Below are positions 15,288 to 64,000 of a stretch of 64,000 nt of DNA, one piece after another. This DNA comes from a virus. The notes under the pieces are model-generated. The model was given only the letters and a program-made list of their open reading frames with translations, was not told the origin of the DNA and did no database searches. A program made the position numbers and the translations under genes. The stretch covers positions 1 through 64,000 of the IMG/VR virus record IMGVR_UViG_3300018429_000060, one strand, 5' to 3'. The number at the start of each line of letters is the position of its first letter. Within the stretch, counting starts at the first letter, position 1.

Positions 15288-15295
15288 CTCGACGA

Positions 15296-32259: not shown

Positions 32260-32500
32260 TCAGCGCGTCAGCTCCAACGCGTCGACACGCGGAACCACGA
32301 CCACGCACACACGCCAACACCTGGACACGCAGTAGCGCGTCACCGCAGAAGCGCCTCAAGGCACCAGCGCGTCAGCAACAACACGCTGAACGGCCGACAC
32401 GCATCTACCCTGTCCCGCTACCGCACTGTCACGCGTGCACGCTTGAGCAGTGTAGCGGCTTACTTCTGACCCGCTGTCAGGCGTCAACACTGACGCGTAA
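32260..32500. repeat. candidate centromere (parS-like) short repeats
   Basis: GCGCGTCA at 32263, 32335, 32367; related ACGCGT/GCGTCA variants at 32277, 32431, 32481 and 32491 upstream of parA. Confidence 0.45.
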
Positions 32501-37125: not shown

Positions 37126-40100
37126 ATGGCAGTCGAAGGCGGCCCGATCGCGCAAGCCGCGGCCGAGCTCGTCATGGACGTCTCCTCGTTCGGGCCCGAC
37201 GTCAAGCGCAAGGTCACCGCCGCGGCGGCGGCCGCGGGCAAGGACTTCGACCGTGAGCTGATCAAGGCCACCCAGCGCACCGGCGGTGTGGTCGGCAACG
37301 GCATCTGGACCAAGGTCGAGGACGGCGCCGGCCGCGGCGGTGTCCGCGCCGGGCAGGAGTTCGACCGGGGGGTGCGGGCGGCGACCCGCCGCACCGGCAC
37401 CCAGCTGGGCCGGTCCGGCACCCAGGCCGGGTTCTCCTGGGGCAACGCGTTCAAGACAGCGCTGGCGCTGGTGCTCACCGGTGCGCTGCTGCGTGGGGTG
37501 TTCGCGCCGCTGGAGGCGGTCGGCAAGGGCCTCGGGCTGGCCACCGTCGGCGCCGGCGCCGCGGCCGCCGCGGCGGGGCTGCTGCAGATCGTCGCGGCCG
37601 CCGCGCCGGCCACCGGGGTGCTGCTGCTGATCCCGGCGCTGGCGGTGGCGGCCGGCGCCGGGCTGCTCACCCTGCGGGTGGCCCTGTCCGGGATGGGGGA
37701 GGCGTTCTCGGCTGCCCTGTCCGGTGACCCCCGCAAGTTCGCCGAGGCGATCGAGTCGCTGTCGCCGGCGGCGCGGTTGGTGGCGCAGGAGTTCCAGCGG
37801 CTGGTGCCGGAGCTGCACGACATCCGTGACGCGACCCAGGAGGCGTTCTTCGGGCCGTTGCAGGGGCGGCTGACGGCGATCGCCGCCACCCTGCTGGGTC
37901 CGGTCCGGTCCGGCATGGTCGGCGTCTCGGCGGCCAGCGCCCAGGTGGCGCTCGGCCTCGGTGACATCGCGGCCCAGGCGCCCACCACGGCGCTGGTCGC
38001 CGGCGGCTTCGACCTGGCCCGCCTGGCGGTGGCGGCGCTGCTGCCCGGTGTGCTGGCGATCGTGCTCGGGGTCCGTGACCTCGGGGTGGTGGCGCTGCCG
38101 CTGCTGTCGCAGATGTCGGCGGCCACCGGTGGTGTCGCCGTCCAGTTCGGGCAGTGGCTGTCCGCGATCGCCGCGTCCGGTCAGGCGGTCACCTGGATCC
38201 AGCAGGCGCTGGCCACGCTGGCCCAGTTCGGGCAGCTGCTGCTGCAGGTCGGCGGCATCATCGGGGCCGTCCTGGGCGCCGCCCAGACCTCCGGCGCCGG
38301 TGCCCTGGTGACGCTGACGGAGCTGCTGCACAGCGTCAACGCGTTCCTGTCCGGCACCGCCGGGCAGACCGCGCTGGTCAGCATCTTCACCTCGTTGAGC
38401 CAGGTCGGTGCCGCCCTGTCGCCGGTGCTGACCGCGCTGCTGGTGCAGCTCGGCCTGATCGCCCCGTTCGCCGCCCAGATCGCCGTCGCGCTCGGCCCCG
38501 GACTGGCCTCCGCGGTCGGCTCTCTCGGGCAGGCCCTGGTTGGTCTGGGGCCCGGTTTCGTGGCCATCGCGGCCGGGCTGAGCCAAGGGTTGATCGCCGC
38601 CGGCCCCGGCATCATCGCTCTCGCCGGGGCGCTCGGGATGCTGCTCGGGTCGGTGGGTCCGCTGCTGCCCCAGCTCGGGCTGCTGGTCGGGTTGGTCGCC
38701 GGCGTGCTCGGTCAGGCGCTGGTCAGCGTCACCCCCGCGCTGATCGCCGTCGCCGGGGTGGTGCTGCGGCTGCTCACCGCGGTGGCGCCGCTGATTCCCG
38801 TGCTGGGCCAGCTGGTCGCCGTGGTGGCGGTCGCGCTCGTGCAGGCCCTCGATGCGCTGCTCCCGGCGATCGAGCCGATCGTCGCCGGACTCGTCTCCGG
38901 GCTCGCCCCCGTCCTTCCCGAACTCGCCCGCGCCTTCGCCGGCCTGGTGGCCGCCGTGGCGCCGCTGCTACCGCCGCTCGGTGCGCTGATCGGGTTCGTG
39001 CTACGCCTGGCCGGCATCGCCCTGGCCTTCCAGTTCAAGGGCCTGGCCGACGCGTTCGAGCTGATCGCGGCCGTGATCGGCCCCGTCGTCGCCGGCATCT
39101 CCCGGTTCGTGTCCTACCTGGGGTCGCTGGACTTCGGGGCGATCGCCGCCGGCATCGGCGGTGCGTTCGCCGGCGCCGGCGCCGCGATCCTCGGCTTCTT
39201 CCGCGGCCTGCCCGGCCAGGTCGGGCGGGCGCTGCTCGGCCTCGGCCGCGCCACCGGCAGCGCCTTCACCAGCGCCGGTCAGGCCATCCAGGACTTCCTC
39301 ACCAGCCTGCCGGGGATGCTCCTGCGCGGGCTCGCCGGCCTGGGGCGGCTCTGGTTCACCCTGTTCACCAGCGCGCTGCAGCTGGGGCTGCAGGCCATCG
39401 GCATCGGCATCGCGTTGATCATCCAGGCGTTCATCGTGCTGCCGGGGCTGATCGGCCGCGGCCTGGTGGCGCTGCCCGGCGTCATCGCCGGCGCCTTCGC
39501 CGCCGCGTGGCGGCTCGCCGTCGACGCCACCACCGCGGCGGTCGCCGCGATCGTGGCGTGGCTGGCCGGGCTGGGCCGTGACGTCGGGTCGATCCTGTCC
39601 GCGCTGCCCGGCCAGGTCGGCGGGTTCTTCCGCGACGCGTTCGCCTCCGGCAAGGCGTGGGTGCTGGACGGGGTGACCGTCATCGTCGGCTACGTCTCGA
39701 CCCTGCCGGGGCGCATCGGCGGGTTCCTGTCCGGGCTGCCCGGCCAGATCGGCGCGATCTTCCGCAACGCGTTCGCCTCCGGCAAGCAGTGGGCGCTGGA
39801 CGGGGTCAACACCATCGTCGGCTACATCGCCGGCCTCCCCGGCCGCATCGGCGCCTTCGCCGGGCAGATGTTCGACGCCGGCGCCCGGCTGGGGAGCCGC
39901 CTGCTCGACGGGCTGCGTCAGCTCGGGTCGTTCGTGTCCGGGCTGGGGCGGGCGTTGCTGAACTACGTCATCGACGGCATCAACCGCGGCATCAGCTCGG
40001 CCTGGAAGCTGCCCGGTGCGCCGCCGCAGATCCCCCGCATGGCCAAGGGCGCCATCGTCGACAAGGCCACCCTCGCCCTGCTCGGTGAGGCCGGCCGCGA

Positions 40101-40326
40101 GGTGGTCATCCCGCTGACCAAGCCGGCGCGGGCGGTGCAGCTGGCCGCCGACTCGGGCCTGCTCGACCTGCTCATCCGCCAGGGCGCGCTGCGGCCCCGC
40201 GGCGGCGACGGCGCCGTGCAGCAGGTCGTGATCAACGCCCCGATCACGGTGCAGGCGCCGTACTCCGACCCCGAGCTGGTCGCCCTGGCCACCGTCGACC
40301 GGCTGCTGCGTGAGGCGGAACTGTGA
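37126..40326 (+). CDS. tape measure protein
   Basis: 1066 aa, Ala/Gly/Leu-rich helical repeats (LPG..G.FF), C-terminal 'MAKGAIV...LLGEAGREVVIPL'. Confidence 0.88.
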   Translation: MAVEGGPIAQAAAELVMDVSSFGPDVKRKVTAAAAAAGKDFDRELIKATQRTGGVVGNGIWTKVEDGAGRGGVRAGQEFDRGVRAATRRTGTQLGRSGTQAGFSWGNAFKTALALVLTGALLRGVFAPLEAVGKGLGLATVGAGAAAAAAGLLQIVAAAAPATGVLLLIPALAVAAGAGLLTLRVALSGMGEAFSAALSGDPRKFAEAIESLSPAARLVAQEFQRLVPELHDIRDATQEAFFGPLQGRLTAIAATLLGPVRSGMVGVSAASAQVALGLGDIAAQAPTTALVAGGFDLARLAVAALLPGVLAIVLGVRDLGVVALPLLSQMSAATGGVAVQFGQWLSAIAASGQAVTWIQQALATLAQFGQLLLQVGGIIGAVLGAAQTSGAGALVTLTELLHSVNAFLSGTAGQTALVSIFTSLSQVGAALSPVLTALLVQLGLIAPFAAQIAVALGPGLASAVGSLGQALVGLGPGFVAIAAGLSQGLIAAGPGIIALAGALGMLLGSVGPLLPQLGLLVGLVAGVLGQALVSVTPALIAVAGVVLRLLTAVAPLIPVLGQLVAVVAVALVQALDALLPAIEPIVAGLVSGLAPVLPELARAFAGLVAAVAPLLPPLGALIGFVLRLAGIALAFQFKGLADAFELIAAVIGPVVAGISRFVSYLGSLDFGAIAAGIGGAFAGAGAAILGFFRGLPGQVGRALLGLGRATGSAFTSAGQAIQDFLTSLPGMLLRGLAGLGRLWFTLFTSALQLGLQAIGIGIALIIQAFIVLPGLIGRGLVALPGVIAGAFAAAWRLAVDATTAAVAAIVAWLAGLGRDVGSILSALPGQVGGFFRDAFASGKAWVLDGVTVIVGYVSTLPGRIGGFLSGLPGQIGAIFRNAFASGKQWALDGVNTIVGYIAGLPGRIGAFAGQMFDAGARLGSRLLDGLRQLGSFVSGLGRALLNYVIDGINRGISSAWKLPGAPPQIPRMAKGAIVDKATLALLGEAGREVVIPLTKPARAVQLAADSGLLDLLIRQGALRPRGGDGAVQQVVINAPITVQAPYSDPELVALATVDRLLREAEL

Positions 40327-40350
40327 CCCCGCGCAGTGTGAGGAGCGGTC

Positions 40351-41628
40351 ATGTATGACCACTGGCTGACCCTCGGCGGTGTCGAGCTCGTCAACTCCAC
40401 CCGCGCCGCCCAGTACGCCGGCGCCCTCGGGATCACCGTGGTGCGGTGCGCCGGCTGCCGCGACATCACCCGCGCCCTGCGCGACGCCCCGTATACGCTG
40501 CCCGGCGACCCGGACAACCCCGCACCCTGGTACGACCCGTCGCTGCCCGAGTCGGCCGGGTTCGCCGGCCTGGTCGGGGTGGAGTTCGAGGGCCTGTCCC
40601 GCGGCACCGGCGGCCGCCAGACGGTGCCGCTGCTCGGCGCCGGCTCCGCGATCGGCGGGCTGCGCCGCGGCGCTCGGGAGGTGCTGGTCAAGGCGCTCAT
40701 GCTGGCCACCACCGACGCCGCCATGTCCTACGGCACCGCCTGGCTGGCGTCGGCGCTGCGCGGGTCGATCTGCCAGACGTCCTGCGTCGCCGACGAGCTG
40801 TGCGTGTTCGCCTACTGCCCCAGCTGCGCCTCCCCGCCGCCGGACCCGCCGGCCTACGACTCGTGCGGGGACGCGGCGCTGCGCACCGTGCTGGACACCG
40901 GGCTGCTCGCCGGCCCGACACCCACCCGCACCCTCACCGTCGGCGGGGGCGTCCTCACCGAGGTCGAGTTCTCGCTGGTGTGCGGGCAGCCGTTCCTGTG
41001 GCGGCAGCCGCGGTACGTGACCGGAACCGGCCAACCCGGTGTGTCGCCGGCGCCGCCGATCGGCCCCGGTGAGGGCTGCGTGGAGAGCATCGACTGCGCC
41101 CACGACCCGCTGTGTCTGCCGCTGCCGCCGCCGATCCGGCCGCCGGCGCCGCCCAACCCGTGTTTCCCCGGACCGCCGCCGGTGGGCGACACCCGCCGCA
41201 CCATCGTGACCGTGCCGCCGGGGCTGCTGCCGCAGTGGTTCGAGAACGTGCCGATCCTGGAGATCCGCACCGGGTCGCTGGCCCTGCGGCGGGTCACGAT
41301 CCGCTTCTACTCCAACCCGGCGCTCTATGAGTGCGCCGAGTACGTCGACCCGTGCACCGCCTGCGCCGAGATCAACATCCCGTACCTGCCGCGCGGGGTG
41401 GTGTTCCGCCTGGACGGGCGGCTGGAGCGGGCGACGGTCGACTGCCCCGGCGGCCCCGGCCTCGACGTCGCCGACGTCGAGGTGTTCGGCCCCGGCGGCG
41501 GCCTGTTCGAGTGGCCCATCTTCGAGTGCAACACGTCGCTGTGCATCGAGGTCGTCGTGCAGCAGTCCACCGCGGCGCCGGACTCGCGCATCGACCTGTG
41601 GATGGCCGCCCGAGAGGACGCCGCCTGA
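40351..41628 (+). CDS. minor tail protein (distal-tail position)
   Basis: directly after tape measure; 'LGGVELVNSTR', 'APWYDP..PES..FAG'; Cys-rich. Confidence 0.7.
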   Translation: MYDHWLTLGGVELVNSTRAAQYAGALGITVVRCAGCRDITRALRDAPYTLPGDPDNPAPWYDPSLPESAGFAGLVGVEFEGLSRGTGGRQTVPLLGAGSAIGGLRRGAREVLVKALMLATTDAAMSYGTAWLASALRGSICQTSCVADELCVFAYCPSCASPPPDPPAYDSCGDAALRTVLDTGLLAGPTPTRTLTVGGGVLTEVEFSLVCGQPFLWRQPRYVTGTGQPGVSPAPPIGPGEGCVESIDCAHDPLCLPLPPPIRPPAPPNPCFPGPPPVGDTRRTIVTVPPGLLPQWFENVPILEIRTGSLALRRVTIRFYSNPALYECAEYVDPCTACAEINIPYLPRGVVFRLDGRLERATVDCPGGPGLDVADVEVFGPGGGLFEWPIFECNTSLCIEVVVQQSTAAPDSRIDLWMAAREDAA

Positions 41629-42758
41629 TGCTCGGCTGCGCCCAGAACTACGCCGCGGCGATCCACGAACGCGGCGGCCGCCGCCGCGTGGTGACCCTGT
41701 CCGGGATCACCCGCATCGGGTGGGAACGCAAACTCGACGACTTCTCCGACGCCACCGTGGTGCTGGCCAAAGCGAAGGCCAGTCGCGCCTGTCTGCGCAG
41801 CCTGGGGCCGATCGAGCCGTGGCAGCACGAGGTGTCGCTCTACCGCGACGGGCAGCGGGTGTGGGAGGGGCCGCTGTTCGACTTCGAGGAGAGCCGGGCC
41901 TCCATCACCCTCACCGCCCGCGATCCGCTGGCCTGGCTCACCCGCCGCGCCCTGCACACCGTGGCGCCGGCCGGGCCGGTCAACGCCGCCGCCTACGCCG
42001 ACACCGTCATCCGCGACGCGTTGGGCTACGCCGGGCAGGACCCGAACCTGATCCCGTTCTTGCAGATCACCACGACCAACTCGCCCACCACCCAGCGGGA
42101 GACGCAGCCGTTGACCGTCACCGCCGGCGCCGAGCTGGCCGAGATCGCCAAGGCCGGCCTGGACTACTTCGCCATCGGCCGCAGCATCCACGTGCTGCCC
42201 GACCGGGTCGACTACACGGTGCGGCCCTACCGGCTGCGCGAGGAGCACTTCCTGGCCGACCTCACCGTGCGCAAGGTCGGCTCCGAGGCCGCCACCAAGG
42301 CGTACGTGGTGGGCACCGGGGAGACCGGCGCCGCCCCGGTCGGTGAGTTCGGGGGCCCAGCGGCCGGCTACGGCCTGATCGAGAACGTGTCCACCAGCCA
42401 GAACACCTCCGACCTGGGGGTGCTCGCCGGGATCGGCGCCAAGGTCGTCGGCTACGGCAACCCGGTGCCCTACACGGTGCTCGTGCCCACCGGCAGCCAA
42501 CTGTCGCCGCGCGCCCCGATCGGCATCCCGGACCTCGTCCCCGGCCGGTACATCCAGGTGGCCATCGCCAACTACGCGGTTCCGGTGCTCGCGCTGATGA
42601 AGCTCAACCAGGTCGGTTGTTCCTGGACCCCGGACACTCCCGAGCAGGTCAGCGTGGCGTTGATCCCCAAGGACGTGTTCGACCTGCCGCCGGCCGAGCT
42701 CGCCGAGCTCGTCGCCGCCGACCACGCCCGCGGCGGTGTGCTGGCCGGTGCGCGGTGA
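41628..42758 (+). CDS. minor tail protein (hub-like)
   Basis: TGATG coupling; 'WERKLDDFS', 'YRDGQRVWEGP', 'ARDPLAWL'. Confidence 0.7.
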   Translation: MLGCAQNYAAAIHERGGRRRVVTLSGITRIGWERKLDDFSDATVVLAKAKASRACLRSLGPIEPWQHEVSLYRDGQRVWEGPLFDFEESRASITLTARDPLAWLTRRALHTVAPAGPVNAAAYADTVIRDALGYAGQDPNLIPFLQITTTNSPTTQRETQPLTVTAGAELAEIAKAGLDYFAIGRSIHVLPDRVDYTVRPYRLREEHFLADLTVRKVGSEAATKAYVVGTGETGAAPVGEFGGPAAGYGLIENVSTSQNTSDLGVLAGIGAKVVGYGNPVPYTVLVPTGSQLSPRAPIGIPDLVPGRYIQVAIANYAVPVLALMKLNQVGCSWTPDTPEQVSVALIPKDVFDLPPAELAELVAADHARGGVLAGAR

Positions 42759-50567: not shown

Positions 50568-51794
50568 ATGTCAGCCTACGCCGGCACGCCCCAGTTGACG
50601 CGCCCGCTGCAGCCCTACCCCCTGGTCACCGACACCCCCACCGGCGACGTGGAGCCCCCGTTCATCCTCGTCGAGGGCGCCGAGAAGTCGGGCAAGTCGT
50701 GGGAGGTCGCCAAGTTCACCGGCGACCCGCGCATCCTCTACACCTGGTGGATCGAGTGGGGCGAGAAGCCCTGCGCCAAGGAGTACGGCGCCATCCCCGG
50801 TGCCCGCTACGAGGTCGTGCGCCACGACGGCTCGTTCTGGTCGGTGCTGTCGCTGGTCGAGCAGATCACCGAGCTGGCCCGCGCCATGATCACCACCGAG
50901 GCCGCGCCGATGATCGTCATCGACACCATGTCCGGCGAGTGGCGCTCCCTGAAGGACCTCGCGCACCGGCGCACCATGGCCTCGCCCAGTGTGCTGCGCA
51001 AGATCGAGCGCAACCCGGCCGCCGTGGCTGATGCCCACACGATCCACAGCAACACGTGGAACGACGTCATCGACCTGCACTACGAGCTGGTCCGGTTGCT
51101 GCAGGGGTTCCCCGGCGTGGCCGTGATGATCTCCCGCGGTAAGGAGGTCACCGCGTTCGACGACGCCGGCCGCCCGGTCCCCGGCGAGAAGACCTACCGG
51201 GTCGAGGGCCAGAAGGATCTCGCCTTCGACGCGTCGGCCTGGGTGCGGATGTCGCGCGACGGCAACCACAGCGTCGTCGCCGCCCGCTCGGCGCGGGCGC
51301 CACGTCGTCCCAACGCCACCCAGCCCGGCGAGTACCGCGGCCTGGGGTGGCTGGTGTTCGACAAGCTGCAGTACCAGCCGCGGCCTTGGACGCCGCCGCC
51401 CGCTGCTCCCGTGCAGCCCACCGGCCCGGCCCGGCCCCCGGCGGCGTCGCCGCAGGAGCCGCGCACCGTCGGCGGTCGCCAGATGGTCGTGCACGACTGG
51501 GCCGCCGAGCTGGAGCGGGTCAACGGCACCGAGAACCTGCGCGAGCGCTACGACCGCCTCACCGAGCTGTGGTCGGCCGCCAGCCTGGCCAACGCCGGCC
51601 AGCCCATCCGCGACGAGATCGCCGCCGCCGGCCGCGTCGCCGCGGCCGAGCTGGGCATTCCACCCAAGGAGCCCGGCGCCGCCGCACCGGCTGACACCCC
51701 GGACCCCACCCCGGACACCACCGAGGCCACCGCACCGGCCACCGCACCGGCCGCCGCGGCGACCACCGAGCCGCCGAGCGAGGTGTCGTCATGA
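50568..51794 (+). CDS. AAA-family ATPase (phage recombination-type)
   Basis: Walker A 'EGAEKSGKS', Walker B 'IVIDT'; AAGGAG RBS. Confidence 0.75.
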   Translation: MSAYAGTPQLTRPLQPYPLVTDTPTGDVEPPFILVEGAEKSGKSWEVAKFTGDPRILYTWWIEWGEKPCAKEYGAIPGARYEVVRHDGSFWSVLSLVEQITELARAMITTEAAPMIVIDTMSGEWRSLKDLAHRRTMASPSVLRKIERNPAAVADAHTIHSNTWNDVIDLHYELVRLLQGFPGVAVMISRGKEVTAFDDAGRPVPGEKTYRVEGQKDLAFDASAWVRMSRDGNHSVVAARSARAPRRPNATQPGEYRGLGWLVFDKLQYQPRPWTPPPAAPVQPTGPARPPAASPQEPRTVGGRQMVVHDWAAELERVNGTENLRERYDRLTELWSAASLANAGQPIRDEIAAAGRVAAAELGIPPKEPGAAAPADTPDPTPDTTEATAPATAPAAAATTEPPSEVSS

Positions 51795-52600
51795 CCGCCG
51801 CCACCACCCGGCGGCCGCGTCGCAGCCGCTACAGCGAGGCCGAGCAGGCCGAACGGGCCGCCCACGACGCCCACGTCAGCGCCGTGGCCGACCAGGTGCT
51901 GACCGACCCGGCGGCGGTGGCCCAGCTCATCCGCCAGCTCGGCGGCTCCTGCACCTCGCCGCGTGTGCTGCGCTACAGCCTGCGCAACCAGATCCTGGTG
52001 CACACCCAGGCCCGCGACCGCGGCATCGCGCTGGTCGACGTCGACTCGGTGCGCGGTTGGCGCCAACGCGGCCGCGGTGTGCGCCGCGGCGAGCGGGGCC
52101 TGCGCATCGTCGCGCCCATGGGCACCGACGCCGCCGCCGACACCCCCGAGGGTGCCGAGGCCCAGCCCGCCGACCCCGTTGCCGAGAGCACCGGTCGGCC
52201 GCTATTCCGCATGGTCAGCGTGTTCGACATCTCCCAGACCGACGGCGCCGACAACGCCGCCGACAACGCCGCCGGCAACGCCGGCGGCCCCGAGGAGCTG
52301 ACCGGGCACGCGGCCACCACCGCCGACGTCGGCGCGGCCGCGCAGCTGCCCGGCGACATCCACCACACCGCGCTGACCGAGGAGATCACCCGCCGCGAGT
52401 ACCGCATCGTCTGGTCCGTCCGCGACCCCGCCGACCCGGTCACCCCGCTCGACGTCCGGGTGGACCACACCGCGCGGATCGTCGACCTGCCGCACGAGCT
52501 GCTGCTCGGCCCCGACACCGACCGCGCCGCCGGGCTGAGCGTCGGCATGGCGCAGATCCTCACCCACCGCCCCACCGCCACCGGGGCAGGTGCGCGATGA
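51791..52600 (+). CDS. ArdC-like ssDNA-binding/antirestriction N-terminal domain protein
   Basis: 'YSLRNQILV', 'W...GR.VRRGERG..I.AP', 'FRMVSVFDISQT'. Confidence 0.8.
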   Translation: MTAATTRRPRRSRYSEAEQAERAAHDAHVSAVADQVLTDPAAVAQLIRQLGGSCTSPRVLRYSLRNQILVHTQARDRGIALVDVDSVRGWRQRGRGVRRGERGLRIVAPMGTDAAADTPEGAEAQPADPVAESTGRPLFRMVSVFDISQTDGADNAADNAAGNAGGPEELTGHAATTADVGAAAQLPGDIHHTALTEEITRREYRIVWSVRDPADPVTPLDVRVDHTARIVDLPHELLLGPDTDRAAGLSVGMAQILTHRPTATGAGAR

Positions 52601-55420: not shown

Positions 55421-55909
55421 ATGCCTGCCACTGCACTACACGCCCGACTCGACGCGCTGTTGCGCACCGAATCGCAGATGAGCGCGAGACTCCACCAGAT
55501 GGACGCCGGCGAGGACGCGGCCGCGCAGGCCAAGGCCGCCGCGCTGGCGGACCGCGCGGAGTTGCACGCCGAGATCGTCACCATCGTGCACCAGCTCGAC
55601 GCGCTGCTGCGCACCGCCTGCGTGGCCCCGCCGGCGGCGTGGGTACCTCAGTTCCCGTCGCCGACGAGTGAGGTCGTCGTCCTGCACGTCCCGCTGGTCG
55701 GGTACGACGCCAAGCTGTTCCTCGCCGGCGTGCGGGCCAGCCAGATCGACCTGACGGTCGTCGACCTGACGAGCCGCTGGACCCACGCCGAGTGGACCGA
55801 GCAGCGCGCCAGGGCTCTGGTCGACAGGTCACCAGCGGCGGCCGCGGCGATCGAGGATTGGTTCGCTCTGGCGGGCGGGCACCTGCACCCCGACCCCGCT
55901 GAATCCTGA
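55421..55909 (+). CDS. hypothetical protein
   Basis: follows promoter copy 1. Confidence 0.55.
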   Translation: MPATALHARLDALLRTESQMSARLHQMDAGEDAAAQAKAAALADRAELHAEIVTIVHQLDALLRTACVAPPAAWVPQFPSPTSEVVVLHVPLVGYDAKLFLAGVRASQIDLTVVDLTSRWTHAEWTEQRARALVDRSPAAAAAIEDWFALAGGHLHPDPAES

Positions 55910-55932
55910 CCCAACGCAATTGCAATTGCCCT

Positions 55933-55990
55933 GAATAGGGCCGGATAAGCCACTCATTAACTGGCTAATCCGGCCCTATTCCATTAGGAT
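55933..55990 (+). promoter_or_regulatory. repeated promoter copy 2 inside a long hairpin
   Basis: AAC-TGGCTA-17 bp-TAGGAT; 14+5 bp stem spanning 55933-55981. Confidence 0.7.
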
Positions 55991-56047
55991 TAGGACATAG
56001 CCCGAATTGATCCCCCTATTCATTGTGCGCGAATTGAGGTATGCGTC

Positions 56048-56365
56048 ATGGACGTTCTGATCGGCCTGTTCTTCATCTTTGTGGTGCCGGCCATCACTTA
56101 CTGGCGTGGGCGGCGCAGCGGCTACCGCCGCCACGCCGCGCAAACCGCCGCGGCGCCGGCCCCCGACGGCACGCTGTGGTGCCAGTGCGGCGGCACCCTC
56201 GCCCACCACAGCCCGGCCACCGGCCGCTGTGCCCACGTCGTGTACGTCGCCGGGCCCGCCGGCCCCGAACAGCGGGCGTGCACCTGCCAGTGGTTCGTCG
56301 ACCGCGCCGACCCGTACTCGCCGCCGCCGCCGGCCTACTCCCCGCCCTTCCCGCCCGCCGCCTGA
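56048..56365 (+). CDS. small membrane-anchored Cys/His-rich protein
   Basis: N-terminal TM helix; CxC...HH...C...CxC. Confidence 0.55.
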   Translation: MDVLIGLFFIFVVPAITYWRGRRSGYRRHAAQTAAAPAPDGTLWCQCGGTLAHHSPATGRCAHVVYVAGPAGPEQRACTCQWFVDRADPYSPPPPAYSPPFPPAA

Positions 56366-56408
56366 CCCCCGAACGACCCCGACAGACCCGACGAGGAGAC
56401 CCACCGCC

Positions 56409-56918
56409 ATGACCCGGATCTACGCCCGGCTGCGCATTCTCAGCGGCCCCGACCTCGACGGCGTGCTGGTCGGCCACAGCGGCCGCGCCGCGTTCGAGAC
56501 CGTTGTCCGCGCCCGGCGCGGCCTCACCACGTCCATGATCACGCCGGTGCTCACGCGGTTCTCCCGCGTGTACGTGGCGCAGGTGGGCGGCAACAAGGCC
56601 GACAACACCGTCGACCTCGCCCTGGAGGCCGGCGGCTACCGCCGGCTCACCCTGCAGGACCTGACCCTCGGCTACCAGCCGCGGGTGCCCCTGTCGCGCC
56701 TGGACAAGACGCTCGCCGCGATCGCCGAGGACTACCCGGTCGGCAGCCCCACCCGGCAGCTCGCCGACGCGCTCGGCGAGGTGCTGGACCTGTGGGCGCT
56801 GCACCGCCGCGAGGGCACCGCCGCGGTTCCGCTGCAGCAGATCGACCAGGTCATCGGCGACCGGCTGCGGCCGCTGTTCCCCGCCTGGTCGCCCGACGAC
56901 GAGCCGGGGGGACCGTGA
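56409..56918 (+). CDS. hypothetical protein
   Basis: GAGGAG RBS. Confidence 0.55.
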   Translation: MTRIYARLRILSGPDLDGVLVGHSGRAAFETVVRARRGLTTSMITPVLTRFSRVYVAQVGGNKADNTVDLALEAGGYRRLTLQDLTLGYQPRVPLSRLDKTLAAIAEDYPVGSPTRQLADALGEVLDLWALHRREGTAAVPLQQIDQVIGDRLRPLFPAWSPDDEPGGP

Positions 56919-57700
56919 TGGAGGTCGACGAGATGACGTGCGCCCACTGCGGCCGCGTCGGCACCCGCGCGTTCGTGCCGCTGCTGCCCGGCAGCAGCTC
57001 CACCTACGGACCCTGGCGGTGTCGCTGGGAGCCGGCCTGTATGCGGCGGTGGCAGGCCACGACCGCAGCCCTGGCGCCGGCACCGGCCCCCGTGGATCTG
57101 GACGCGCCCGCCCCACCCGCTGATCCCACCTGGGCGCCTGCGCCTGGCATTCCGTTGGAGGTTCCCGTGACCGATCGCGTACCCGACGCGCTCCCCCCGC
57201 ACATCATGACGGCCGCGCAGCGCTGCCACAGCCGGCTCCTGGACCACGGCTGCGACTTCGGCCTGCTGCTGACCGGCATCGCCACCTGGCAGGTGCGCTA
57301 CCTGCTGCCGGCCGCCACGGCCATCAGCATCAACTGGGACGAGCAGGTGCAGCTGCTGGCCGTGCACGCCGGCGACCGCACCCTGTGGCACGTCGACACC
57401 GATCCCGAGGAGCCCCCCGAGGGCGTGCCCGACAGCACGTGGACGGCGGCGCTCGACCGCATCGAGTGGATCCTGCACGACGCGCTGGACAGTGCAGGGC
57501 CCCACGACCTCGGCTGGCGCCCCCACACCCACGCCGACGGGTGGGAGCTGGAGCTGGCCGTGCACCCCGCCGGCGTGGACGTCCGCGCCGCGGATCTCGC
57601 CGCGCTCGACGAGCTCGCCGCCGCCACCGGCGGCTGGCACCGCCCCCCCGGCCCTGCGCCTGAACCGGCCGCGCCGGGCAGCACCAACACCACCAGTTGA
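56918..57700 (+). CDS. hypothetical protein (probable fusion)
   Basis: TGATG coupling; N-terminal CxxC; in-frame RBS + GTG at 57167. Confidence 0.5.
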   Translation: MEVDEMTCAHCGRVGTRAFVPLLPGSSSTYGPWRCRWEPACMRRWQATTAALAPAPAPVDLDAPAPPADPTWAPAPGIPLEVPVTDRVPDALPPHIMTAAQRCHSRLLDHGCDFGLLLTGIATWQVRYLLPAATAISINWDEQVQLLAVHAGDRTLWHVDTDPEEPPEGVPDSTWTAALDRIEWILHDALDSAGPHDLGWRPHTHADGWELELAVHPAGVDVRAADLAALDELAAATGGWHRPPGPAPEPAAPGSTNTTS

Positions 57701-57709
57701 GGAGCCCTC

Positions 57710-58588
57710 ATGTCCACCACGACCGTCCGCCGTGGTCGCCGCGCTGCGGTGACCGACGACCGCGTCCGCGAGATCCTGCGCACCGTCCAGATCACCGGCC
57801 TGCACCTCGCCCTGCCGGACCAGCTCGACCCGCGCGAGTACACCGCCGTCAACACGATCCTCACCGCTCTGGGCGGCCGCTGGCATTCCCGGCAGCGCGT
57901 CCACGTGTTCACCGTCGACCCGGCGCCGGCGCTGGCCGCCTACCTCGCCGGCAGCGCCGCGCCACGGCCACCGCAGCCGCCGCGCACCACCGAGGGCTAC
58001 GTGCCGACCCCACCCGCGCTGGCCGCCGAGATCCTGCGCCTGCACACCGACATCGGCGACCTCGACCCGGCCACCGGGGACCAGCTGCGGGTGCTGGAGC
58101 CGTCGGCCGGCGACGGCGTCTTCGTCCACGCCATCCTCGGCGTCGCACCGCGGCCGGTCGCGATCGAGGTGTTGGCGATCGAGCCCAACCCGGAGCGCGC
58201 CCGCCTGATCTGCCGCGACCGGCCGGACCCGAGGGTGACCGTCCTGATCGGCACCCTGGAGCAGTTCTGCCAGGCCCGCCGGACGCGTCTGGCCCACGAC
58301 GGCCCGCAGGGCAGCGAGCTGCGCCAGTTCGACCTGGTGGTGATGAACCCGCCGTTCGCCGTCCCCGGCCGGTCCAGTCTGTGGATCGACCACCTCACCC
58401 TCGCCTGGGACCTGCTCGCGCCGGGCGGGACGATGGTGGCGATCGTGCCCGAGTCGCTGGACTATCGCCGCGACCGCCGCCACGACGAGATCCGCGACCT
58501 CATCGAGAGCCACGGCGCGCACCGGCCGCTGGCCCCCGGCGCGTTCACCTCGGTCCACGCCAGGGTGGCGTGGGCCGAGAAGCCCTGA
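57710..58588 (+). CDS. N6-adenine DNA methyltransferase (orphan)
   Basis: 'YVPTP', 'VLEPSAGDG' (motif I), 'VVMNPPF' (motif IV). Confidence 0.85.
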   Translation: MSTTTVRRGRRAAVTDDRVREILRTVQITGLHLALPDQLDPREYTAVNTILTALGGRWHSRQRVHVFTVDPAPALAAYLAGSAAPRPPQPPRTTEGYVPTPPALAAEILRLHTDIGDLDPATGDQLRVLEPSAGDGVFVHAILGVAPRPVAIEVLAIEPNPERARLICRDRPDPRVTVLIGTLEQFCQARRTRLAHDGPQGSELRQFDLVVMNPPFAVPGRSSLWIDHLTLAWDLLAPGGTMVAIVPESLDYRRDRRHDEIRDLIESHGAHRPLAPGAFTSVHARVAWAEKP

Positions 58589-58660
58589 CCCTCTCCCCCG
58601 CGCACCGCCGGAATAGCGCGCAAAACAATTGCGAAAATTGACCCCATAAATGGGTTCATT

Positions 58661-58703
58661 AACTGGCTATTGGCGCGCCATTGGATTATGATATTGGTAT
58701 CAG
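58661..58703 (+). promoter_or_regulatory. repeated promoter copy 3
   Basis: AAC-TGGCTA-17 bp-TATGAT-ATTGGTATCAG; spacer contains the palindrome TGGCGCGCCA. Confidence 0.7.
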
Positions 58704-58737
58704 ATAACGAGCAATAAGACATAGAACGGGAGATGTC

Positions 58738-58923
58738 ATGTACGAGGTTGAGGAGCCCGAGCACTGCGAGGTCTGCGGCCACTTTCACCGTGAGCCGGTC
58801 TGTTCCCCGGAGGCTCCTCTGTTCGCTCCCGGCGAGTCGTGCGGCTCGTACCTCTGCTGCCAGCCCGGCGGGTTCGGCGAGGGTCACCGGCCCGGCCGGT
58901 CGTACCTGCGCTACCAGCCCTGA
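58738..58923 (+). CDS. small Cys-rich protein
   Basis: GGGAG RBS; first gene after promoter copy 3. Confidence 0.5.
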   Translation: MYEVEEPEHCEVCGHFHREPVCSPEAPLFAPGESCGSYLCCQPGGFGEGHRPGRSYLRYQP

Positions 58924-58941
58924 CCCCCACGAAAGGACGTC

Positions 58942-59112
58942 ATGCACTCCTCCTGCGACCGGGCGCCCATGGCGGGGCGGGAGCCCCGCACCCCGATCTG
59001 CTGCCTCACCCACGACCGCGCCAACTACCGGCGGCGCTCCCGGCGCCGCCAGGGCCGTGAGACCCGTCGCCTGGGCGACGCGGCGATCGCCGCCCGCTCC
59101 GCCGCCCGCTGA
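58942..59112 (+). CDS. small Arg-rich protein (56 aa, not in ORF track)
   Basis: AAAGGA RBS + ATG at 58942. Confidence 0.45.
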   Translation: MHSSCDRAPMAGREPRTPICCLTHDRANYRRRSRRRQGRETRRLGDAAIAARSAAR

Positions 59113-59148
59113 CCCCCCCGTCGACCAACCCCGGAAGGAGCCCCCGAC

Positions 59149-59337
59149 ATGCGCAACGCCCGCGGCCGCGGTGGTTGGCACCCCGACGCCCCGATGATCA
59201 CCAGCAAGCGGACGCTCGACCCCAACCCCAGCGCCGTGAAGCGCATCTCGTCCGCGCTCACCCGCAAGCGGCGCGCGGCCGACAGCCGCGCGGCCCGCCG
59301 TGCCCGCGTCCACCTCACCCGCGCCCACCAGGGCTGA
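59149..59337 (+). CDS. small Arg-rich protein
   Basis: AAGGAG RBS. Confidence 0.5.
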   Translation: MRNARGRGGWHPDAPMITSKRTLDPNPSAVKRISSALTRKRRAADSRAARRARVHLTRAHQG

Positions 59338-59363
59338 CCGCTCCAGCGAAAGGAGTCCCCATC

Positions 59364-59696
59364 ATGTCCACCCCGATCACCCCGGCGGCCGCGCCGGCGG
59401 CCGCGAGGCTGCTGAGCGGCCCCGAGGTGATGGCCCTCGCCGCGATCATCGCCGCGGCCCAGACCGGCGAGACGGTGGCGCGAGTGGACGCTGCGGAGCC
59501 CCGCGCGGGCGTGACCCGCGGCACCGCCCGCAGCGTCGGCGACCTCAACGGCGTGTTCCTCGCCGCCCACGCCGACGTGCGCGACTCCTACCTACGGGTC
59601 ACCACCGACCACGGCTGGGACGTGTTCTGGCCCGTCGCCGAGCTGGCCGCCGAGTACGTGACCGGCGAGTTCGTGATCCGCCCGGCCGCGGTCTGA
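59364..59696 (+). CDS. hypothetical protein
   Basis: AAAGGAG RBS. Confidence 0.55.
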   Translation: MSTPITPAAAPAAARLLSGPEVMALAAIIAAAQTGETVARVDAAEPRAGVTRGTARSVGDLNGVFLAAHADVRDSYLRVTTDHGWDVFWPVAELAAEYVTGEFVIRPAAV

Positions 59697-59714
59697 ACCA
59701 CCCCCGCGAAGCGC

Positions 59715-59820
59715 GAATGGGGCGCCATCAATTGTGAGTGGTACCACACACAATTAATGGCGCCCAATTCCCTTTATAACTGGCATTCACAAGGGCGGTC
59801 AATTAGGATAATGGTGTTAG
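59715..59820 (+). promoter_or_regulatory. 56-bp palindrome plus repeated promoter copy 4
   Basis: 28-bp arms with 3 mismatches (59715-59770); AAC-TGGCAT-17 bp-TAGGAT at 59778-59809. Confidence 0.7.
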
Positions 59821-59854
59821 CAAAAACCACCAAAGAATTGTGAGGAATAGGGCC

Positions 59855-60256
59855 ATGGGCGTAGCACTGTCGGTCGAGGACATCACCGTGCAGGACCTGG
59901 ACCGCGCCGACATCGCCGAGGAGTACGCCATGCTCGACGAGTGCGGCGACCTGCCGACCGACGAGGCCAGGACCTACTTCACCCACTACGGGCACCGGGT
60001 CTCCATCAACCTGGTCGACGCGGCCGGCGAGCACGTCACGCTGGACGCCGACGCGGCCGGGTTGGCCGCGGTGGCCACCGTCGAGGCCGAGGTCAACGCC
60101 GCGCTCGTCGCCGCCGGCGCCGCCAGCGCCGAGCTGGGCTGGGGGTTCTCGGCCTACGCCTTCTGCTCGTGCCCGTGCTCGCCCGGCTTCATCGTCCAGG
60201 GCACCGGCACGCAGAAGACCGCGACCGTGCGGCTGCGGGTCACGCAGTCCGCCTGA
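59855..60256 (+). CDS. hypothetical protein
   Basis: GAGGA RBS; 'CSCPCSPGF' motif. Confidence 0.6.
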   Translation: MGVALSVEDITVQDLDRADIAEEYAMLDECGDLPTDEARTYFTHYGHRVSINLVDAAGEHVTLDADAAGLAAVATVEAEVNAALVAAGAASAELGWGFSAYAFCSCPCSPGFIVQGTGTQKTATVRLRVTQSA

Positions 60257-60260
60257 ACCG

Positions 60261-60297
60261 ATGCCAGGGGGTGAGGCGCCGCCTCACCCCCTGGCAT
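60261..60297. terminator. perfect 18-bp-arm inverted repeat
   Basis: ATGCCAGGGGGTGAGGCG-c-CGCCTCACCCCCTGGCAT. Confidence 0.55.
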
Positions 60298-60332
60298 TCC
60301 GCCGCCCCCAACCCCAGCAGAGGAGCACCCCC

Positions 60333-60644
60333 ATGCCCACCCTGACCGACCCCGCCGCGGGCGCCGAACTCGTCGACTTCGCCGACCCCGACACCTGCCC
60401 CGTCGACCCCACCGACACCGACCCCGCCTACCTCGCCTTCCTCGCCGAGCTGGTCGCCGACGACCAGCGCGCCGCCGCCCGCCGCGGCACCCCCGCCCCG
60501 CGTTCCTGGGGCGACCGGCTCAGCGCCACCGACTACTTCTGCCCCACCTGCTGGTACGCCGGCCTCGGCGACGGCAGCCACAGCGACACCCACCCGCCCT
60601 GCGACCCGCCCGGCACCGTCCGCGGCCCCTACGACCCCCGGTGA
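60333..60644 (+). CDS. hypothetical protein
   Basis: GAGGAG RBS; CxxC. Confidence 0.5.
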   Translation: MPTLTDPAAGAELVDFADPDTCPVDPTDTDPAYLAFLAELVADDQRAAARRGTPAPRSWGDRLSATDYFCPTCWYAGLGDGSHSDTHPPCDPPGTVRGPYDPR

Positions 60645-60952
60645 CCGCCATGACCACCCCGCCCACCCCGCCCACCGAGGTGACCTACGACGTGACCGTC
60701 GTCATCAGCGTCGACTGCGCGAACGGTCCGCTCGCCGCGGCGTTCCGCGGCTGGGACCAGATCACGGCCCTCCAGGCGCCCGTCGTCACCGTCGTGCACC
60801 GCCACCCAGCCGGCGGCGAGCCCACCGAGGTCGACTTCGAGCACTACGACCGCACCTCCGACCCCAGCTGGAGCCACTACGAGGCCACCGGCGAATTCCT
60901 TACGCGACCCGACGACGATGACGAACCCGCAGAGGCTGGAGACCACCCATGA
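60641..60952 (+). CDS. acidic hypothetical protein
   Basis: GTGA coupled. Confidence 0.5.
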   Translation: MTAMTTPPTPPTEVTYDVTVVISVDCANGPLAAAFRGWDQITALQAPVVTVVHRHPAGGEPTEVDFEHYDRTSDPSWSHYEATGEFLTRPDDDDEPAEAGDHP

Positions 60953-61443
60953 CCACCCCGACCATCCCGGCCGTCGACCCGGCCGCCCCGACGGCCGCTC
61001 AGGCCCTGCTCCCGGCGTCCGTGGCGCTGCCGACCCACGCCGCCGTCCGCGTCGCCGAGCTGCGCACCCTGCTCCAGCACATCCGCCTGGCCCAGCTCAC
61101 CACCGCCGGCGCCGTCGAGCGCTACGTGATCCAGCTGGCCGCGGACCTGGAGTCGACCATCGTCGTGCCGCTGCCCGTGGTGGTGCGCGTCGACGCCGAG
61201 AACGGCCAGGCCACCCTCATCTGCCCCCACCCGCGCTGCGGCGCCGTCGGCTCCATCCACGAGGAGGACCGCGCCGGCCGCTGGAACACCGCCCACGAGG
61301 CCGAGGCAACCCCGGACGGCCGGCTGCGCTGGATCCAGTGGGGCCTGGGCGACAGCAACGGTTTCGAGCACGAGCGCCACTTCTGCGACAGGTGTCTGCG
61401 CCCGGTCACCATCGACGAGACCGTCGAGCACGGCTACCTCTGA
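60949..61443 (+). CDS. Zn-finger hypothetical protein
   Basis: ATGA coupled; CPHPRC and CDRC. Confidence 0.55.
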   Translation: MTTPTIPAVDPAAPTAAQALLPASVALPTHAAVRVAELRTLLQHIRLAQLTTAGAVERYVIQLAADLESTIVVPLPVVVRVDAENGQATLICPHPRCGAVGSIHEEDRAGRWNTAHEAEATPDGRLRWIQWGLGDSNGFEHERHFCDRCLRPVTIDETVEHGYL

Positions 61444-61659
61444 CAGCGCGAAGCCCGGAGTCCCACGACAACGCGGGCGCATCCGGGCCTCTTCGGCCGA
61501 CTCCGCGGAACGGCCTACTGGCGAGAACGCTAGCACCGAGCCACCGACGTCACCAACCCATAACCGTGCGTTACCGTGGCCGCGCGGTGGCGGCGTTTCG
61601 ACAGGAGCCTGCCAGCTCCGCACCACAACCCGACCAGCGCGAAAGGGGCTCCCACCGGC

Positions 61660-63528
61660 ATGGCTGTCGTCGTCCACGTCTACGGGGTTCCGCCGGTCCT
61701 GCACGGCGAGCGGGTCCGGCTGCCCGCCGAGGTCGACGAGCAGCTGTCCTTGGCGCACTGCCTGCGCGAAGACCTCGTCACGCTGGAGCACCAGCGGCAG
61801 GACGCGGTCACCGCCGTCTGGTCCAGCTACCCGCAGATCGCCGCGATCGAAACCCAGCTCACGGCCGCCGAGACCGAGCTCACCGACCGTTCCGCGGCCG
61901 CGGCCGCGGAACGGTCCGCGGCCCGCAAGAAGGGTCCGACCGAGTCCTCCGAGGCGGTGCGTCAGCTCAAAGCCCGCATCAAGGACCTGCGCAGCCAGCG
62001 CCGCACCGCCATCGCCGACGCCCACCCGACCGCCACACCGCGGCTCACCGCGATCGCCGACGCCCACCGCGCGGCCATCAAGGCCCTCTACGCCGACTAC
62101 AGCCAGGGCCGCGGCCTGTACTGGGCCACCTACAACGACGTCGTTGCCCATCACCAGGTCGCCACCAAGAGGGTCGCGGCCGAACGCAAAGCCGGCCGCC
62201 CCGCCAACATTCGGCATCACCGCTACGACGGCTCCGGCAGCATCACCGTGCAGCTCCAACGCCAGACCGGCGCACCGCCCCGGCTGCCGGCCACCATCGC
62301 CGACGAGCAGAACGGCCCCTGGCGCAACGTCCTGTACCTGACACCCTGGGTCGACCCCGACACCTGGGCCACCCTGGCGCGGGCCGAGCAGCGCCGCCGC
62401 CGCCTCGGCGTCGTTCGCCTCGACCTCGGCAACAAGCGCCACCTCAGCATCCCGGTGCTGGTCCACCGCATGTTGCCGGCGGACGCCGACATCACCAGCG
62501 CCCGGCTCGTCGTCCGCCGCGTCGCCGGCCACCGCAAGATCGAGCTGCACGTCACCGCCAGGATCAAGGATCCGGTGACCCGCTCCGGCGGGCCGGCCGT
62601 CGCCTTGCACCTCGGCTGGCGCCGCGAGGACGGCGGCGCCGTGCGCGTCGCCACCTGGCGCAGCACCGCCCCTGTCCACGTGCCGGACGACCTCAACGAC
62701 CTGGTGCACGCCGACACCGACCACACCGGCACCATCTCCCTGCCCGCGCGCTGGTGGCACCGGGTGTCCACCCAGCCCGAGATGGCGGCCCGACGCGCCA
62801 CCTCGCTCAACGACATCCGAGACCAGCTCGTCGCAGCCCTGACCGACAACCCACTCACGATCACCGCAGACGACGAGGACGCTCAGCCGGTCCCGACCGC
62901 CGCGGCGGTCGCGACGTGGCGTTCACCGGCCCGGTTCGCCCACCTCGCACGCACCTGGGCCACCGACTGCCCCGCAGGCCACCAGGCCACCGCCGCCGCC
63001 CTGGAAAACTGGCGACGCAGCGACCGCCGGCTCTGGGAACAGCAGGCGCACGGCACAGCCAATACCCTCGCGGCCCGCGCCGATGCCTACCGACGGACGA
63101 TGTCCTGGCTACTGACCGGCGCCAGCCGACTGGTCCTGGACAACACGGCCATCGCCGACCTGGCCCGCCGCGCCGATCCCGCGACAGAGCCCACCCTGCC
63201 CACCGCGGTCACCGACCGGGTGGCCCACCAACGCATCGGCGCCTCACCCGGCCAACTCCGCAGCATCGCCACCACCACAGCGAACTCCTACGGCGTGGCC
63301 GTCGCCGTCATGCCCCACACGGGCATCACCCGCACCCACTACCGATGCGGACACCTCAATCCAGCCGACGACCGCTACTCGGCCGCCCGGATCGTCACCT
63401 GCGACGGCTGCGGTCAGCACTACGACCAGGAATCATCCGCAACCCTCATGCTGCTCGCCGCGAGCGGCGACGTGGCAGCACCCGGCAGCGCCACCGCTCG
63501 CAACCCCGACACCAGCGCACACGCGTAG
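61660..63528 (+). CDS. cas12m: type V-M CRISPR effector Cas12m (622 aa)
   Basis: Colinear resemblance to MmCas12m as I recall it: 'LAHCLREDLV', 'WSSYP', 'LYWATYN.V..HH', 'RHHRYDGSGSITVQLQRQ.GAPPR', RuvC-I 'VALHLGWR', RuvC-II 'LVLDNT', Zn finger 'HYRCGH...CDGC'; GAAAGGGG RBS; CRISPR array starts 106 bp downstream. Confidence 0.9.
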   Translation: MAVVVHVYGVPPVLHGERVRLPAEVDEQLSLAHCLREDLVTLEHQRQDAVTAVWSSYPQIAAIETQLTAAETELTDRSAAAAAERSAARKKGPTESSEAVRQLKARIKDLRSQRRTAIADAHPTATPRLTAIADAHRAAIKALYADYSQGRGLYWATYNDVVAHHQVATKRVAAERKAGRPANIRHHRYDGSGSITVQLQRQTGAPPRLPATIADEQNGPWRNVLYLTPWVDPDTWATLARAEQRRRRLGVVRLDLGNKRHLSIPVLVHRMLPADADITSARLVVRRVAGHRKIELHVTARIKDPVTRSGGPAVALHLGWRREDGGAVRVATWRSTAPVHVPDDLNDLVHADTDHTGTISLPARWWHRVSTQPEMAARRATSLNDIRDQLVAALTDNPLTITADDEDAQPVPTAAAVATWRSPARFAHLARTWATDCPAGHQATAAALENWRRSDRRLWEQQAHGTANTLAARADAYRRTMSWLLTGASRLVLDNTAIADLARRADPATEPTLPTAVTDRVAHQRIGASPGQLRSIATTTANSYGVAVAVMPHTGITRTHYRCGHLNPADDRYSAARIVTCDGCGQHYDQESSATLMLLAASGDVAAPGSATARNPDTSAHA

Positions 63529-63634
63529 GCTCTCCCCCCAGCCAGCACCGACGCACCTTGAAACCTGAACCTCTAGACCAGCGCTCGCGATGATCTCCAT
63601 GTGGCCTGGTCAATCGCGTCTCGTACAGCGAGCT

Positions 63635-64000
63635 GTCGCAACGCCTGCGTCGGGGCCTCGTGCCGACGACGAGTCGATCTGGCGGGAGGCTTGTCGACTC
63701 CCGGAGCTGTCGCAACGCCTGCGTCGGGGCCTCGTGCCGACGACCTCTGCACAAGCGCCGGGACGTGCTCGACACGACCTGGTCGCAACGCCTGCGTCGG
63801 GGCCTCGTGCCGACGACCTCTGCACAAGCGCCGGGACGTGCTCGACACGACCTGGTCGCAACGCCTGCGTCGGGGCGTCGTGCCGACGACGATGCGCCCA
63901 CAGCCTGGTCGCACCGCCTGTGTCGGGGCGTCGTGCCGACGACTATGCCCCTTCGTGTGGCGGTGCTGTGGTGGCCGAGTGGTCGCACCGCCTGCGTGGG
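63635..64000 (+). CRISPR. CRISPR array, 36-bp repeat GTCGCAACGCCTGCGTCGGGGCCTCGTGCCGACGAC, truncated by the window end
   Basis: repeats at 63635, 63709, 63782, 63855, 63908 and 63982 (partial); spacers of 38, 37, 37, 17 and 38 bp; CGTCGG/CCGACG stem near the repeat 3' end. Confidence 0.95.

Follow-up and report, generated by a model that had tools for sequence, protein, structure and literature searches.

Why would a temperate phage carry a CRISPR effector that binds DNA and does not cut it, and what would it be aimed at? The question is raised by a locus in the IMG/VR virus record IMGVR_UViG_3300018429_000060, a 91,306-bp sequence of ~73% GC that is classed as a provirus with a CheckV completeness of 75%. 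Bases 1–64000 of this record constitute the stretch analyzed here (the window; positions past its end are those of the record), and 105 genes were called by codon-position GC. An initial annotation had read positions 61660 to 64000 as a stand-alone Cas12m (type V-M) CRISPR locus on a phage-plasmid, serving as an RNA-guided repressor of competing elements, of host defence genes or of the element's own genes. From the evidence set out below we conclude, with a probability of roughly three in four, that this is an apparently intact V-M unit devoid of adaptation genes, carried as accessory cargo by a temperate actinophage, and that it would silence rival mobile elements in the lysogen.

Identity of the Effector

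The start codon of cas12m, ATG at 61660, lies ~12 nucleotides (nt) 3′ of an AAAGGGG Shine-Dalgarno-like box and is supported by the protein N-terminus, which aligns from M1 with those of the closest homologues. The open frame around it (61576–63528, + strand) has a codon-position GC of 0.71/0.56/0.90, which is of the coding type (third-position GC, GC3, 0.90). An overlapping 891-residue open reading frame (ORF; 60918–63593) was rejected as a high-GC artefact on the grounds of its Arg/Pro-rich translation and 73% GC. Comparison of the 622-residue protein with PDB chains using phmmer returned GoCas12m (8PM4) at E 7.1e-131 (residues 20–601) and MmCas12m2 (8HIO/8HHL) at E 1.2e-129, these matches spanning residues 19–602 in all, and the more distant Cas12m 23VW at E 4e-30. 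The PADLOC profile Cas12u1 (V-U1 being the old name of type V-M) matches at E 4.4e-149, aligning protein residues 1–601 with profile positions 1–529 of 533. Pfam and NCBIfam yield sub-threshold echoes alone, both in the C-terminal zinc ribbon: Cas12f1-like_TNB at 14.8 bits and guided_TnpB at 11.3 bits.

These partial C-terminal matches are the points in favor of a different identity, namely that an element of the IS200/IS605 type encodes the protein as its TnpB and has nothing to do with the neighboring repeats, an explanation to which we give next to no chance. The guided_TnpB score is far under the NCBIfam cut-off of 100 bits, TnpB structures match at the noise level of E 0.61 as against ~1e-130 for those of Cas12m, and the gene is followed on its 3′ side by a true CRISPR array with a co-varying handle of the Cas12m type (see below). 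Moreover, none of 19 neighboring genes scanned encodes a transposase above the Pfam gathering score; the lone recombinase-type Pfam match among them is a sub-threshold Phage_integrase hit in a PHROG integrase-like gene ~8.6 kb downstream. With neither a TnpB-level match nor a transposase among the neighbors scanned, and with a CRISPR array in place, a TnpB identity is refuted, and the weak TnpB/TNB matches reflect shared ancestry. Profile and structure-sequence comparison accordingly sides with the initial assignment of the protein to Cas12m.

At least 125 homologues were found among 5.8 billion protein clusters, nearly all of them metagenomic, the nearest being 57% identical and GoCas12m 43% identical (BLASTP). 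In an alignment of 39 sequences the RuvC positions are occupied by H317, D494 and D589, confirming the non-canonical RuvC motifs that had been remarked on in the 622-residue ORF, and the same HDD combination is found in 30 of the 39 aligned homologues. D494 aligns in the PDB phmmer alignment with D485 of MmCas12m2, the RuvC residue that was mutated in the published dRuvC control (PMC10442227). The H-D-D triad defines Cas12m clade 2 (PMC10442227), which does not cut double-stranded DNA (dsDNA); HDD proteins silence the DNA to which they bind and leave it uncleaved (PMC10442227, PMC11013384). With residue roles taken from PMC10442227, the four readers of the protospacer-adjacent motif (PAM) are kept, Y141/W152/N156/Q197 of MmCas12m2 corresponding to Y144/W155/N159/Q200 in the window protein, and the His-Arg pair that contacts the CRISPR RNA (crRNA) is kept as H269/R270. 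All invariant columns of the Cas12m family are retained as well. In a quick maximum-likelihood tree of the 39 sequences the protein falls inside the large clade of HDD proteins. There it belongs to an uncharacterized metagenomic subclade of nine members, with a member on a 115-kb contig, that is sister to the sequence P0009 and separate from the Gordonia/Mycobacterium-plasmid subclade. By sequence, then, the protein is a type V-M effector of the Cas12m2 clade with an HDD triad of the non-cutting type. By analogy with HDD proteins of this family it would bind dsDNA in a PAM-dependent manner without cleaving it, silence what it binds and process its own pre-crRNA.

CRISPR Array and Guide RNA

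The array of 36-bp repeats that had been noted directly after the ORF was confirmed; it begins 106 nt downstream of cas12m and comprises nine 36-nt repeats, with R1–R5 and the start of R6 lying in the window and 219 nt extending past its end. Repeats R1–R6 start at 63635, 63709, 63782, 63855, 63908 and 63982, R7 and R8 at 64052 and 64123, and a degenerate R9 that carries an insertion occupies 64183–64219. The eight clean copies span 63635–64158 at a spacing of 70–74 nt, or 53 nt across the truncated S4, and from R1 to R8 they show 0, 0, 0, 1, 3, 4, 4 and 5 mismatches to R1. Spacers S1–S8 measure 38, 37, 37, 17, 38, 34, 35 and 24 nt; S2 (63745–63781) is identical to S3 (63818–63854), and S4 (63891–63907) is cut to 17 nt. 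As the repeats are perfect near cas12m and decay away from it, the leader is to be placed on the cas12m side. Decay of the distal repeats is usual in functional arrays. Together with the duplicated and the truncated spacer it points to recombination and drift rather than to ongoing spacer uptake, and, having neither Cas1 nor Cas2, the element is left with a fixed set of spacers.

The repeat folds into a hairpin near its 3′ end that leaves the last two bases unpaired, which alone is unremarkable for a GC-rich RNA. We compared it with repeats from three metagenome contigs (L039, L040, L041), a viral contig (L037) and a mini-array on a Mycobacterium intracellulare plasmid (L013), and found the common pattern GCC-N-GCG, stem, nine-base loop, stem, CGAC. 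Across nine Cas12m-associated repeats from six loci the six-pair stem (columns 14–19 with 29–34) is 96% paired, with compensatory changes in four of its six pairs (15 compensatory cells). The observed covariation score was reached by no shuffle, and slid controls were 24–51% paired. From this co-varying 3′ hairpin it follows that the array encodes crRNAs of the Cas12m type, in the + direction and with the spacer 3′ of the handle.

A covariance model of the repeat scores R1–R8 at 33–43 bits and R9 at 22.9 bits. Run unfiltered over the record it found the array alone and no convincing dispersed single repeat; a 19.5-bit match (E 0.055) inside a coding region was rejected as chance. A degenerate repeat pattern had no match in the GTDB species genomes, and there is therefore no sign of a host array that supplies spacers in trans. 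The compared plasmid, pFLAC0070_1 of M. intracellulare, offers an observation of its own: after a cas12m homologue annotated as "transposase" comes a mini-array of two repeats (L013:7822–7926), itself without annotation, the repeats of which carry the same stem-loop-GAC handle.

Absence of Adaptation Genes

No Pfam match to Cas1, Cas2 or Cas4 was obtained at E ≤ 1 in the whole 91,306-bp record, which covers all but ~31 kb of the source contig, under conditions in which control genomes respond. The lack of cas1, cas2 and cas4 upstream of the locus, as first noted, thus holds on both of its sides, including the part of the record beyond 64 kb, and the reading as a stand-alone V-M locus is supported. 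Since lack of adaptation genes is the rule for V-M systems (PMC10691335), the label "stand-alone" is correct yet ordinary.

The Phage Carrier and Its Variable Slot

Features of the locus and its surroundings are collected in Table 1. The record holds a complete virion and packaging set that comprises a MuF-like minor head protein, major head and major tail proteins, adaptor, tape measure and minor tail proteins, endolysin, TerS, TerL and portal. Downstream of the array follow a divergent operon, then TerS, TerL, portal, an integrase-like gene, DUF932, DUF2786 and a UvrD-like helicase. Phage genes therefore stand on both sides of the locus, which places it in a phage genome and not in host DNA, and the earlier claim that it lies within a mobile element is borne out. 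So is the claim that it ends a co-oriented block, taken in the initial annotation to be of establishment or anti-defence type; among the products of this block are an anti-restriction-like protein and an orphan methyltransferase.

Table 1. Positions of the cas12m locus and of other features of the carrier (window numbering; "record" marks positions beyond the window)
Feature	Position	Strand	Remarks
cas12m, 622 aa	61660..63528	+	Cas12m2-like clade; H317-D494-D589 RuvC triad; intact C563/C581/C584 zinc-ribbon (TNB) motif
Leader, cas12m stop to first repeat	63529..63634	+	106 nt; no recognisable promoter
CRISPR array	63635..64000, on to 64219 of record	+	9 repeats, 8 spacers
Nearest upstream promoter-like box (AACTGGC ... 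ATTAGGAT)	59778..59830	+	heads g65-g68; AT-rich island
Cargo genes g57-g68	55460..61443	+	co-oriented, upstream of cas12m; mostly without family matches (Pfam, PHROG, PADLOC); the orphan DNA methyltransferase is among them
Minor head/MuF-like protein	7460-9988		upstream of locus
Major head protein	11027-12736		upstream of locus
Major tail protein and head-tail adaptor	14238-16300		upstream of locus
Large genes (1047-aa, 808-aa, 437-aa proteins)	16308-25973		~10 kb from head-tail adaptor to endolysin; almost no PHROG matches
Endolysin	26033-27376		upstream of locus
ParA	31367-32260	-	PF13614, E 1.4e-35; phrog_164
Tyrosine recombinase	32901-34058	+	
Tape measure and minor tail proteins	37174-42758		upstream of locus
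Anti-restriction-like protein	51791-52600	+	in + strand block
Orphan DNA methyltransferase	57710-58588	+	in + strand block
Phage DAM-like (PF22555)/GNAT-like (PF22559) protein gene	record 66462-67874		divergent operon downstream of array
tRNA-like gene	record 67930-68002 (L008:7930-8002)	-	ARAGORN; anticodon undetermined ("tc", abnormal loop)
TerL as ATPase-only 274-aa ORF, then 275-aa ORF	record 68799-70447 (L008:8799-10447)		275-aa ORF without family match
Second tyrosine-recombinase/integrase-like gene, 507 aa	record 72157-73680	+	directly after portal

Relatives of the carrier were found by way of its DAM-like/GNAT protein and an alignment of TerL, and comprise two IMG/VR fragments (L015, L016) and a prophage in Kutzneria viridogrisea DSM 43850 (L021). 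In all three the order g56 ... g70-g72-g74, TerS-TerL-g77-portal-g79 is kept (tblastn synteny), homologues of cas12m and of g57–g68 are absent, and the slot between the g56 and g70 homologues is occupied by just 0.7 to 5.1 kb of different genes, an N6 methylase gene being among them. Because the relatives keep the flanks without cas12m, the Cas12m unit is lineage-specific accessory cargo, and the slot that it occupies, close to the packaging module, is a variable one; g57–g68, cas12m and the array together fill this slot and are absent from the related phages.

We regard the carrier as a ~120-kb siphovirus-like actinophage of a high-GC actinobacterium, related to the Kutzneria prophage; that it is a temperate phage can safely be stated. 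The designation as a phage-plasmid stands in part. Its phage half is secured by the virion and packaging genes; its plasmid half is no more than possible. Against it speak the provirus class that IMG/VR gives the record and the Kutzneria relative, the closest one in culture, which lies inside an 815-kb contig with its head and terminase genes 82 kb apart. Speaking for a plasmid state, ParA is kept at 58% identity in the two IMG/VR relatives, and plasmids of ~100 kb from Streptomyces and Micromonospora encode distant homologues of the major head protein. The small gene downstream of ParA gave no ParB match, and no plasmid-type Rep was identified in the record, where a UvrD-like helicase is present. 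In the Kutzneria genome there is no close ParA homologue, the best being 40% identical and outside the prophage region. A CheckV completeness of 75% for 91.3 kb implies a genome of ~122 kb, with which the two IMG/VR relatives agree (53% of 64.9 kb, 26% of 32.2 kb). This is just the size of the source contig (122,036 bp), which is recorded as encoding the identical Cas12m protein; the part trimmed by IMG/VR may therefore also belong to the element, a further point in favor of a plasmid state.

Some further observations concern the region downstream of the array. The divergent PF22555/PF22559 operon, which may be a DNA-modification module, is headed by the tRNA-like gene, just upstream of the DAM-like/GNAT gene. 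Both ORFs of the TerL region are kept as adjacent matches in the two IMG/VR fragments and the Kutzneria prophage, and the position of the 507-residue recombinase after the portal is kept in all three relatives.

As to expression, a promoter-like box, AACTGGC followed after ~17 nt by ATTAGGAT/ATTATGAT, occurs in four copies at 55308, 55959, 58661 and 59778, each in an AT-rich island within the 73% GC DNA and each preceding a cassette of small unknown genes. From 59871 to the array there is no AT-rich island. That the box at 59778 may drive g65–g68, cas12m and the array as one transcript is a reasonable guess and no more.

Targets and Function

The array was searched against phage and plasmid DNA, genomes of the order of the Kutzneria relative and the record itself, and these searches returned neither a protospacer nor a PAM. 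Within the 91-kb record no spacer matches, at full length or as an 18-nt seed, which leaves the proposed control of the element's own genes unsupported. When the whole array was compared by blastn with 50,697 phage records and 72,556 plasmids, all matches were at E ≥ 0.2; those to a Rathayibacter coupling-protein gene and to mycobacteriophage minor-tail genes were judged chance GC-rich similarity. IMG/VR contains no exact copy of the PAM-proximal 21–23-mers of S1, S2, S5, S6 and S7, nor do the GTDB species genomes contain that of S2. In 401 genomes of the order to which the Kutzneria relative belongs (including two unpublished ones, G347 and G179, on which no claim rests), the array found chance-level matches only, the best of which, at E 7.5e-6 per genome, was rejected as being gapped and located in a histidine-kinase gene. 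Where the array matched the records of the three relatives, the Kutzneria genome or the viral contig L037, it did so from repeat to repeat only.

From homology with MmCas12m2 and GoCas12m a scheme for the action of the unit can be proposed, in which the array would be transcribed from the cas12m side and Cas12m would bind the 3′ hairpin handle of each repeat, maturing the crRNAs without a trans-activating crRNA (tracrRNA). The resulting complex would bind dsDNA beside a probably T-rich 5′ PAM and stay bound without cutting, blocking transcription or replication of the target. In the lysogen, rival mobile elements such as superinfecting phages and plasmids would in this manner be silenced without DNA breaks. 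That competitors or host defence genes are what the unit targets, as the initial annotation also held, is a plausible guess.

Four observations weigh against an active unit directed at rival elements. N495, next to the RuvC-II Asp, occupies a position at which 29 of the 39 homologues have D. No consensus sigma-70-like promoter was detected before cas12m or in the 106-nt leader by promoter scan. No protospacer was found in the record or in the databases searched, and hence no target class or PAM can be given. Finally, R6 and R7 carry a stem mismatch, and because of this mismatch and of the duplicated and truncated spacers part of the array may be non-functional.

Carried further, the last of these leads to the alternative that the locus is a decaying passenger without current function, a captured V-M unit drifting to loss. 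To the duplicated spacer, the 17-nt spacer and the stem mismatch of R6 and R7 can be added the repeat decay of up to 5 mismatches in R8, the insertion in R9, the absence of cas12m from all three relatives and the lack of identified targets. Set against these, the ORF is intact at 622 residues, retains the invariant columns of the family and has a coding-like GC3, and the four repeats closest to the leader have at most one mismatch, distal decay being usual in functional arrays. We consider decay to be quite improbable.

A second alternative takes the unit to be functional and assigns it another object: rather than a weapon against rivals, it would be a guide-programmed regulator of host genes, for instance defence genes, during lysogeny. 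Cas12m silences without cutting, so that chromosomal targets would be tolerated (PMC11013384). The position of the locus at the end of a block with an anti-restriction-like gene and an orphan methyltransferase fits such a role, and a small, fixed spacer set would suit a hard-wired regulator. The 401 genomes, with their chance-level matches, and the Kutzneria genome, which yielded none, speak against it, if weakly, as the true host need not be among them. On balance we deem host regulation unlikely, and silencing of rival mobile elements by an apparently intact V-M unit is the reading we prefer.

Both kinds of target can be accommodated in a broader and more tentative proposal, which we consider possible and short of probable: a heritable "silencer cassette", in which a fixed-guide Cas12m of the lysogen shuts off specific rival prophages or plasmids, or else defence genes of the host, and breaks no DNA in doing so, and in which such cassettes are swapped at a cargo hotspot by the packaging module. 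If true, this would spare the prophage from SOS induction.

Relation to Known Systems

The closest characterized counterparts of the window system are MmCas12m2 from Mycolicibacterium mucogenicum (PDB 8HHL/8HHM/8HIO) and GoCas12m from Gordonia otitidis (PDB 8PM4), with which it shares full-length homology (622 versus 596–614 residues), the H-D-D triad, the TNB zinc ribbon, the PAM-reading Tyr/Trp/Asn/Gln set and the crRNA-binding His-Arg pair, as well as a 36-nt repeat with 3′ hairpin handle and the lack of cas1/2/4. It differs from them in being carried by a phage rather than by a bacterial plasmid or chromosome, in belonging to a separate metagenomic subclade and in having N495 in place of the usual Asp beside the RuvC-II Asp.

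Reports of phage-borne Cas12m are scarce. MvCas12m of myxophage MV-1 is called the first phage Cas12m in a preprint (bioRxiv 10.64898/2026.09.14.751636); like the window system it is a V-M effector that a phage encodes beside an array of eight spacers, without adaptation genes, tracrRNA or identified protospacers. MvCas12m, however, has the canonical D-E-D triad and a Myxococcota host, whereas the window protein is H-D-D and belongs to an actinobacterial phage. Bigelyte et al. had earlier drawn Cas12m sequences from IMG/VR and did not discuss their carriage by phages (PMC11013384).

A further case is provided by the viral contig L037 (IMGVR_UViG_3300021363_000011), which has a 49%-identical cas12m with the same repeat handle, likewise at the edge of the packaging module, where the gene with its mini-arrays sits directly before the terminase gene. 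The two phages are unrelated (their portals are 26% identical, and L037 has 66% GC), and the L037 Cas12m falls in a different subclade. In contrast to the one array of the window phage, tiny degenerate arrays flank the L037 gene on either side, and their spacers measure ~16–20 nt. Repeats on this contig were seen at ~9555–9909, 12001–12092 and ~13811, with extra single copies, one of them after the terminase gene. Cas12j (CasPhi) of huge phages, another virus-encoded type V system free of adaptation genes, resembles the window system in being a compact single effector with a short array on a phage, presumed to act against competitors; it is a different protein family, and it cuts DNA whereas HDD Cas12m binds only.

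Published V-M systems are matched in effector, triad and repeat as well as in the lack of adaptation genes, and the biology is not new in kind. The phage carrier is the less usual aspect, a setting that is little reported and is becoming familiar.

Implications

As a diverged orthologue in the Cas12m2 clade with a known repeat, the window protein is a possible compact scaffold for CRISPR interference (CRISPRi) or base editing in high-GC hosts. Cas12m has until now been treated as a bacterial defence borne on plasmids or chromosomes, and the phage case of the lone 2026 preprint has a canonical nuclease triad. With the present locus a member of the HDD clade, which only binds, is seen in the genome of a phage, where relatives have other cargo in the same slot. 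This lends support to the idea that CRISPR effectors of the non-cutting kind are enlisted by phages in the conflicts among mobile elements, where interference free of cleavage would suit a prophage that needs to avoid the SOS response.

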